DNA of 64,000 nucleotides from Escherichia coli (lineage in GTDB: Bacteria > Pseudomonadota > Gammaproteobacteria > Enterobacterales > Enterobacteriaceae), in the NCBI RefSeq assembly GCF_003334385.1, contig NZ_QOWN01000022.1. One strand, written 5' to 3'. Below are positions 56,933 through 57,192 of this stretch, piece by piece. Positions within the stretch are counted from its first letter, which is position 1, and each line of letters starts with the position of its first letter. A program made the position numbers and the translations under genes. The notes beneath the pieces are model-generated. The model was not told the origin of the DNA and did not search any database. It saw only the letters and a program-made list of their open reading frames with translations.

Positions 56933-57192
56933 GCCTGTTATTTATCAGCGTCTACCCTTTAAGAGTCCACCCAATGACCAGAGGGAAATATGACGACACT
57001 TATTTATTTGCAAATTCCTGTCCCTGAACCGATTCCTGGCGATCCTGTTCCAGTGCCCGATCCGATCCCTCGCCCGCAACCCATGCCTGACCCACCACCC
57101 GATGAAGAACCGATTAAATTGTCGCATCGTGAGCGTAGATCTGCGAGGATACGCGCCTGCTAACTTTGCGTCGATGACCACGAGAATAGATT

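Follow-up and report, generated by a model that had tools for sequence, protein, structure and literature searches.

ynaL, a proline-rich upstream reading frame locked to dbpA, is constrained as protein in its core and as nucleic acid in its 3' third

Between the gene of the small RNA FnrS and dbpA, the genome of Escherichia coli carries a short proline-rich reading frame, and the locus raises the question of whether this frame encodes a protein and, if so, which kind of selection acts on it so close to the start of its neighbour. The frame had been singled out in an earlier note on the window, which here denotes the whole analysed stretch of DNA with its length of 64,000 nucleotides. Its description is borne out by the sequence and by the list of open reading frames: an ATG at 56990-56992, which is preceded by GAGGG (56981-56985) and by an in-frame TGA (56975-56977), opens a frame on the plus strand that ends with TAA at 57161-57163 and that encodes the 57 residues MTTLIYLQIPVPEPIPGDPVPVPDPIPRPQPMPDPPPDEEPIKLSHRERRSARIRAC. 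The rare codons AGA (57137), AGG (57146) and ATA (57149) are found within it, an ORF of 78 amino acids exists on the opposite strand (56945-57181; ORF list) and the placement between fnrS and dbpA agrees with Rfam, the ORF list and the RefSeq annotation. The locus comprises the following features:

56811-56928, plus strand: fnrS, small RNA and upstream neighbour (Rfam RF01796, 134.8 bits)
56905-56924, plus strand: stem of the intrinsic fnrS terminator, followed by a T-tract (terminator scan)
56981-56985, plus strand: Shine-Dalgarno-like GAGGG of ynaL (sequence)
56990-57163, plus strand: ynaL coding sequence, 57 codons and TAA (RefSeq CDS, Pfam PF23677)
57181-57195, plus strand: translation-initiation region of dbpA with a conserved CGAGA (57181-57185) and the GTG (57193-57195) (alignments)
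57193-58566, plus strand: dbpA, encoding the ATP-dependent RNA helicase DbpA, with a GTG start (ORF, RefSeq annotation)

The proposal of a small gene was right with respect to its coding nature, whereas the assumption that it had escaped annotation was not, as the frame is the annotated gene ynaL. A K-12-like RefSeq record (L001) contains at matching coordinates (1551-1724), between zntB and dbpA, the CDS WP_001296046.1, termed 'proline-rich small protein YnaL', and residues 1-57 of the translation align to positions 1-57 of the 57 positions of the Pfam model PF23677.1 (i-Evalue 2.2e-40, 136.8 bits). In sequence, coordinates, frame and genomic context, this ORF is the same as the YnaL family PF23677 and differs from it in nothing; the gene was already known and YnaL is the founding member of the family. 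In their study of small proteins, VanOrsdel et al. (2018, PMC6001520) place ynaL between fnrS and dbpA, give its product as 57 amino acids of identical sequence and include it in the 36 small proteins that were detected by chromosomal SPA-tagging and immunoblotting, with the tagged protein reportedly present at high levels. The same paper counts ynaL among the 13 positives of an earlier ribosome-profiling screen with tetracycline-inhibited ribosomes and remarks on a possible ynaL-dbpA operon. Two of the checks that had been recommended in the earlier note, the epitope-tagging at the chromosomal locus and the ribosome profiling, were thus already in print with positive outcome (PMC6001520), and the third, conservation, is now documented by an alignment of homologues and by pN/pS across 80 enterobacterial species. 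It is certain that the 57-codon frame is ynaL, a real, conserved and translated small-protein gene, and its rediscovery serves as a positive control, showing that genuine small ORFs under the size cut-off can be recognised from a reading of sequence alone. The literature that was searched contains no paper besides PMC6001520 that discusses ynaL and nothing specific that links ynaL or dbpA to EF-P, CsrA or read-through from fnrS. For identity, coding status, synteny and the two regimes of selection described below, our confidence is high.

The gene is present in nearly all E. coli, with its DNA recovered at 95-100% identity in 5393 of 5426 complete genomes by a megablast search with positions 56940-57200, and of 30 genomes taken at even intervals from the ranked matches, 29 have ynaL annotated at this place. 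On the level of protein, a search retrieved 164 relatives, each with PF23677, from Escherichia, Salmonella, Citrobacter, Enterobacter, Klebsiella, Raoultella, Kosakonia, Leclercia, Lelliottia and related genera; as far as seen, ynaL is restricted to the Enterobacteriaceae. On the level of DNA, a search of one-genome-per-species contigs with the pattern PDPPPD..PIK, which left third positions free, identified 85 loci. The order zntB-fnrS-ynaL-dbpA is constant across 80 enterobacterial species at loci with long enough flanks, where fnrS is located about 150-170 nt upstream of the YnaL core and dbpA directly downstream. An exception in spacing is found in Intestinirhabdus alba (L057), where about 1.1 kb of extra sequence (~3582-4700) separates fnrS from ynaL, a distance that elsewhere measures about 60 nt. 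Few small proteins of E. coli are, like YnaL, conserved in many genera of enterobacteria and tied to a single neighbour.

What moves in this arrangement is the ynaL stop codon. The core keeps a constant distance to the dbpA start, also in species with a displaced stop, and the gap between stop and start ranges from -50 to +63 nt, with 29 nt in E. coli. In Klebsiella and Raoultella (L028-L030, L035, L036, L049, L067, L080, L084), the protein is extended by five residues (RLSAL-like) and ends just 14-19 nt before dbpA, and in K. oxytoca, K. michiganensis and K. grimontii (L031, L068, L076) the stop is lost and the frame overlaps dbpA by 50 nt in a different frame. Within E. coli, one genome out of about 5,400 has an IS1 element inserted into the 5' part of ynaL, and frameshifted or truncated variants form a few clusters. 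The existence of these variants implies that ynaL is dispensable in some strains, yet it is intact almost always. In E. coli OSUCMP42NDM (L088, NZ_CP087578.1, ~700-1500), an IS1B between fnrS and the 3' part of ynaL truncates the gene, and the remnant is annotated as a hypothetical protein. The Pro tract shows in-frame changes of its repeats, which include a 33-nt deletion in E. coli E69 (L071), a 10-residue duplication of PDPRPHPQPM in Salmonella enterica P0053 and a 2-codon insertion in L043. This gain and loss of whole units fits slippage in a repetitive coding tract with preservation of the frame.

An open frame of 57 codons is in itself not beyond chance at this locus, since 2.5 kb of the surrounding sequence contain 49 ORFs of at least 20 amino acids (ORF list) and since CCN-rich DNA keeps several frames open. 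The signal beyond chance is comparative and resides in the conserved Shine-Dalgarno motif and ATG and in the codon-position pattern of the Pro-rich core. In 79 of 80 species, the frame contains an ATG that has a Shine-Dalgarno-like motif 5-15 nt before it, the exception being Leclercia adecarboxylata NCTC13032 with a 1-nt deletion in a C-run that is possibly an assembly error, and the length from start to core varies from 21 to 39 codons. In an alignment of 30 relatives, the variable N-terminus is followed by the near-invariant sequence DPxPxPDPIPRPQPMPDPPPDEEPIK(L/M)SH..RSARIRAC. With respect to its conservation, the gene is divided into the following segments:

56990-57040, plus strand: variable N-terminal segment of YnaL, residues 1-17 (protein alignment)
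57041-57109, plus strand: Pro-rich core of YnaL, residues 18-40, DPVPVPDPIPRPQPMPDPPPDEE (codon-position entropy, pN/pS)
57092-57100, plus strand: PPP, P35-P37 (CCA CCA CCC), a potential EF-P-dependent stall motif
57110-57127, plus strand: Block A, CCGATTAAATTGTCGCAT, residues 41-46 (PIKLSH), with frozen third positions
57128-57136, plus strand: variable linker, codons 47-49 (RER), with variation at all three codon positions
57137-57157, plus strand: Block B, AGATCTGCGAGGATACGCGCC, residues 50-56 (RSARIRA), invariant at all codon positions

The entropies at codon positions 1, 2 and 3 of the core are 0.28, 0.22 and 1.46, and pairwise Nei-Gojobori comparison yields a pS of 0.63, a pN of 0.12 and a pN/pS of 0.18, with statistics computed from 15 codons upstream of the search pattern and therefore free of ascertainment bias. 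The amino-acid invariance inside 57086-57118 is partly a consequence of ascertainment, as the pattern demanded PDPPPD..PIK. In dbpA (codons 6-110), which was used for comparison, pS is 0.64 and pN/pS 0.09. The synonymous divergence of the core is thus that of an ordinary gene while its amino acids are held, which argues for purifying selection on the level of the protein. This coding-type selection was found for residues 18-40 only. The 'short hydrophobic N-terminus' of the original description does not withstand the protein alignment, where the segment is conserved neither in sequence nor in length or character, and it is not hydrophobic in Klebsiella and Raoultella. A small membrane protein or type I toxin was rejected, as there is no conserved transmembrane segment and as the AlphaFold model contains no helix of four or more residues.

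A distinct regime is encountered from codon 41 on. In Block A (CCG ATT AAA TTG TCG CAT), pS drops to 0.079 with almost no variation at third positions, though the search pattern allowed it, and among 80 species CCG is found in 75, ATT in 80, AAA in 72 and TCG in 80. In Block B (AGA TCT GCG AGG ATA CGC GCC), pS is 0.004 and thus about 150-fold below the adjacent core. The linker between both blocks, codons 47-49, contains an in-frame stop in 15 of 80 species, which belong to the groups of E. cloacae/hormaechei, Lelliottia, Huaxiibacter and Kosakonia cowanii. Since the four groups have intact relatives without such stops, these must have arisen on three or four occasions at the least. Past the premature stops, Block B shows no change, and the gap between stop and dbpA in these species measures 57-63 nt instead of about 28. 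All ynaL stops are located after Block A, the earliest at codon 47, with the consequence that ribosomes always traverse Block A and need not traverse Block B. The 'basic tail' that had been ascribed to the peptide is hence not kept as protein, as the 21-nt Block B is invariant at all positions and persists after the stops in those 15 of 80 species, and the rare codons AGA, AGG and ATA do not constitute a trait of codon usage, as they lie inside this nucleotide-invariant block. Tail and rare codons are instead accounted for by a nucleic-acid element, since the invariance of Block B extends beyond premature stops.

The alignments thus lend good support to the view that from codon 41 on selection acts on the nucleic acid of ynaL and not on the protein. 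The conserved stretch that begins at this codon continues into the start region of dbpA, where the third positions of codons 2-4 are also frozen, as judged from their entropies, and the frozen 3' third of ynaL is probably part of the dbpA control region. Together with the moving stop, it points to an unstudied region of control for this gene. Block B is present in a single copy within the window. The dual constraint is the only new point of our analysis of ynaL; as far as could be found, neither it nor the mobile stop codon has been described previously, and a distinction between a protein-level and a nucleotide-level portion of the gene was not found in PMC6001520. Both features define a testable hypothesis on the control of dbpA.

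Several explanations for the invariance of the blocks were considered and rejected. A second overlapping frame is not compatible with the data, as the +1 frame is devoid of a conserved start and as all positions are frozen and not two of three. An internal sigma-70 promoter was found by scanning in neither strand of Blocks A and B, and manual checks of spacing failed; the remainder of the ynaL ORF is likewise free of promoter-like sites in the scan. Mimicry of, or complementarity to, rRNA (23S hairpin 92, 16S, 23S and 5S) was dismissed, as just 7-8-mers are common to the blocks and rRNA, and the best gapped match, between Block B and 16S positions 703-719, was reached by 23 of 300 shuffled sequences. 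For both blocks, Rfam shows nothing but fnrS, even at E-values up to 10. Block B includes a GATC site, and its GGA could be part of a hairpin, GCG-AGGAUA-CGC. A role of this hairpin as a CsrA-type site is a tentative lead, against which it speaks that the stem is broken by a GAG in Kosakonia, that a second GGA site is absent and that a link in the literature was not found. In Kosakonia and its allies (L003, L012, L013, L015, L027, L037, L038, L041, L043, L047, L069, L079), two linked changes are observed: Block A has CGT in place of CAT, and Block B has GAG in place of GCG. These changes are not compensatory in any helix that was tried; possibly, they reflect that the blocks contact each other or bind the same partner. 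At codon 44 of ynaL (57119-57121, plus strand), which is preceded by an A/U-rich ATTAAA, TTG is found in 54 and ATG in 26 of 80 species and no other leucine codon occurs. Since both are possible start codons, an internal in-frame start is conceivable at this position, which may give rise to a peptide of 14 residues, or of 3-4 residues in lineages with early stops.

Collectively, the data support well a view of ynaL as an upstream ORF that is tied to dbpA and whose core is under protein-level and whose 3' third is under nucleic-acid-level selection, and a short co-oriented ORF directly upstream of dbpA is found in all loci with enough flank. How both regimes might act together is suggested by a complementarity between Block A and the dbpA start. 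As the likeliest mechanism, though as a possibility rather than a probability, we tentatively propose that translation through Block A unmasks a weak GUG start of dbpA. In such a mechanism, both genes would be co-transcribed, and Block A would pair with the weak initiation region of dbpA in a masking helix, GUCGCA:UGUGAC, across the GUG. Ribosomes translating ynaL through Block A would open this pairing, and DbpA synthesis would follow the flux of ribosomes through a Pro-rich, PPP-containing ORF. The location of stops exclusively after Block A fits the need for ribosomes to traverse Block A and not Block B. Among the arguments against such coupling, the non-proline residues of the core are conserved, which would not be required in a pure ribosome-flux device, and Block B has no supported role in the model. 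A joint transcript could originate from the following candidate:

56931-56958, plus strand: candidate sigma-70 promoter for ynaL-dbpA, TTGCCT (56931-56936), a 16-nt spacer and TACCCT (56953-56958)

This element resides within the 61-nt spacer that follows the fnrS terminator, where it overlaps with the end of the T-tract, and transcription from it would be predicted to begin near 56965. It matches the consensus in 7 of 12 positions and was not reported by a consensus scan; the TTG of its -35 and the TAnnnT of its -10 motif are conserved across genera in an alignment of 31 spacers. In two Citrobacter species, the spacer contains a 9-nt deletion.

The proposed pairing was investigated in folds, duplex energies and covariation. 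GUCGCA of Block A (57121-57126) is complementary to UGUGAC at the dbpA start (57192-57197), and in the MFE fold of the E. coli sequence Block A is paired with the region of the dbpA Shine-Dalgarno and GUG. The 6-bp helix between Block A and the dbpA start can pair in 99% of cells across 80 species, and in the RNAalifold consensus it is Block B that is paired with the dbpA start, in a helix that can pair in 97% of cells. As the columns of both helices are invariant, they provide evidence in neither direction, and covariation was found for no helix, neither by RNAalifold nor by explicit counts of pairs in the 80 species. The only variable helix, between the linker and the bases preceding CGAGA, was rejected, as it is paired in 64.5% of cells, a value matched by 113 of 500 shuffles. 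In E. coli, the duplex between Block A and the dbpA initiation region has an energy of -11.4 kcal/mol, which was reached by 25 of 300 shuffles, and the duplex between Blocks A and B is unremarkable compared to shuffled sequences. A masking of the dbpA start by Block B was discarded, as its duplex is weaker than those of shuffles, as was a pairing of the blocks with FnrS or with the 5' region of ynaL, which is no better than shuffles. The whole leader of E. coli folds no better than shuffled sequences (z 0.23). So far, a helix in which Block A would mask the dbpA start is the idea, as yet unproven, that fits best.

Coupled upstream ORFs and leader peptides are known to unmask downstream starts, and mgtL and mgtP of Salmonella are examples of proline- or EF-P-sensitive leaders. 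Similar to these, ynaL is short, located directly upstream of dbpA in the same orientation and contains consecutive Pro codons, and, as in coupled upstream ORFs, a conserved segment of RNA that is complementary to the dbpA start lies between its Pro run and this start. Unlike typical leaders, ynaL is with 57 codons much longer and its peptide accumulates when tagged. It also differs from leaders of the mgtL/mgtP type by the absence of a terminator or of supported alternative structures, and stalling is in this case a candidate only.

The accumulation of the tagged protein (PMC6001520) is in line with an alternative where YnaL works in trans, as a rod of the polyproline-II type that binds DbpA, an intermediate of ribosome assembly or another protein. 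We regard this as plausible, if somewhat short of probable. Blocks A and B would in that case be an unrelated leader or regulatory element of dbpA that overlaps with the 3' end of ynaL by chance, and the activity in trans would be compatible with coupling in cis. Residues 18-40 form an alternating X-Pro run that ends in PPPDEE. An AlphaFold prediction based on an alignment of 30 sequences shows no secondary structure and a pTM of 0.22, with a pLDDT of about 90 for residues 21-40; since confidence is high in this region despite the absence of secondary structure, the model points to a stretched-out rod of the polyproline type and not to a fold. This confidently predicted extended conformation favours an activity of the protein, as do the non-proline positions of the core, which are conserved or conservatively replaced (V/I/T, D/E, R/H/K, Q/H), its low pN/pS (0.18) and the tolerance for indels and repeat changes in frame (the 33-nt deletion in L071 and the 10-residue duplication in P0053). 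In contrast, a search of the PDB identified no relative of YnaL, a partner, phenotype or homologue of known function is missing, 15 of 80 species do without the C-terminal third as protein, one E. coli strain tolerates the IS1 insertion, and the sole resemblance in NCBIfam and Pfam is a low-complexity match to the spacer of TonB. Homology to the latter was rejected, as the match to NF008084 reaches 20.8 bits, where the cut-off is 315, and covers the Pro-rich spacer only, and as the Pfam model TonB_N (PF16031) reaches an E-value of 0.75. Common to YnaL and this spacer is the alternation of X and Pro, from which a rigid, extended segment of the polyproline type would be expected; YnaL differs from TonB by the absence of an N-terminal anchor and a C-terminal domain.

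A further comparison concerns oncocin, apidaecin and Bac7, proline-rich antimicrobial peptides that are strongly cationic and that bind to the ribosomal exit tunnel. YnaL resembles these peptides in being short and Pro-rich and in containing an invariant PRP motif, and its link by neighbourhood to a factor that acts at the peptidyl-transferase centre provides a parallel. Unlike in these peptides, the core of YnaL is net acidic and rich in D and E, and there is no match in sequence.

The PPP motif suggests another alternative, which we consider unlikely, where ynaL would act as stalling leader. Ribosomes would pause at PPP or in the X-Pro run when EF-P, Pro-tRNA or the performance of the peptidyl-transferase become limiting, the position of the paused ribosome would decide on the pairing among Block A, Block B and the dbpA start, and DbpA synthesis would be tuned to the capacity for translation. 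Judging from the typical size of a ribosome footprint, we infer that the leading edge of a ribosome stalled with its P site on the second Pro codon would reach to about where Block A begins. Of 113 protein clusters in which the core is retained, 105 have PDPPP, at fixed distance from Block A, which would be expected for a site of stalling; three clusters contain PDPSP in its place, which would not. Block A can pair either with Block B (UCGCA:UGCGA) or with the dbpA start, and mutual pairing among three such invariant blocks would account for invariance that is not accompanied by covariation. However, none of the duplex energies stands out from those of shuffles, covariation in support of alternative structures is absent in the 80 species and the direction of regulation is not deducible. 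A circumstantial observation comes from recent proteomics, where DbpA, EF-P and ArgRS are all higher in exponential phase, an observation that is compatible with a link and is not evidence for it (PMC13393375).

In its most far-reaching form, which we think quite improbable, the 3' third of ynaL and the dbpA start would constitute an ultraconserved cis-regulatory element, with the PPP-containing ORF sensing the capacity for translation and setting the synthesis of DbpA. Block B would serve as binding site of some factor or as alternative pairing partner in a switch. DbpA is a helicase that remodels the region of the 23S rRNA A-loop during assembly of the 50S subunit, with hairpin 92 of 23S rRNA as its target. 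If true, such a sensor would thus provide feedback from the performance of peptide-bond formation to the assembly of the catalytic centre.

The possibility that the signal at the locus originates from the opposite strand (antisense -1 frame, e.g. 57004-57084), or from the chance openness of CCN-rich DNA that keeps several frames open over the core, carries a minute probability, as the antisense -1 frame, despite a pN/pS of 0.23 that is almost as low as in sense, is open over the whole gene in just 33 of 78 species, whereas the sense strand displays the conserved Shine-Dalgarno motif and ATG (79 of 80 species) and a C-terminal SPA fusion in the sense frame that is positive on immunoblots (PMC6001520). 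The low value in the antisense -1 frame reflects wobble positions that are common with ynaL, and pN/pS alone is for this reason unable to choose the strand in such tracts. The choice is settled by the conserved sense start, the published tag in the sense frame and openness over the whole gene, a test where the sense frame is open partly by construction, and a non-coding or antisense reading of ynaL is effectively excluded. The 78-amino-acid ORF on the minus strand, which had been suspected to be a by-product, behaves as one, with a pN/pS of 1.26 and a frame that is open over the gene in 18 of 78 species. The antisense -1 frame contains a Gly-rich ORF of 26 amino acids, MGCGRGIGSGTGTGSPGIGSGTGICK (window 57004-57084, minus strand).

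The window harbours a second annotated small upstream ORF, YnaN, with 15 codons (55671-55718, plus strand), which is located 13 nt upstream of zntB and listed in RefSeq as 'protein YnaN'.
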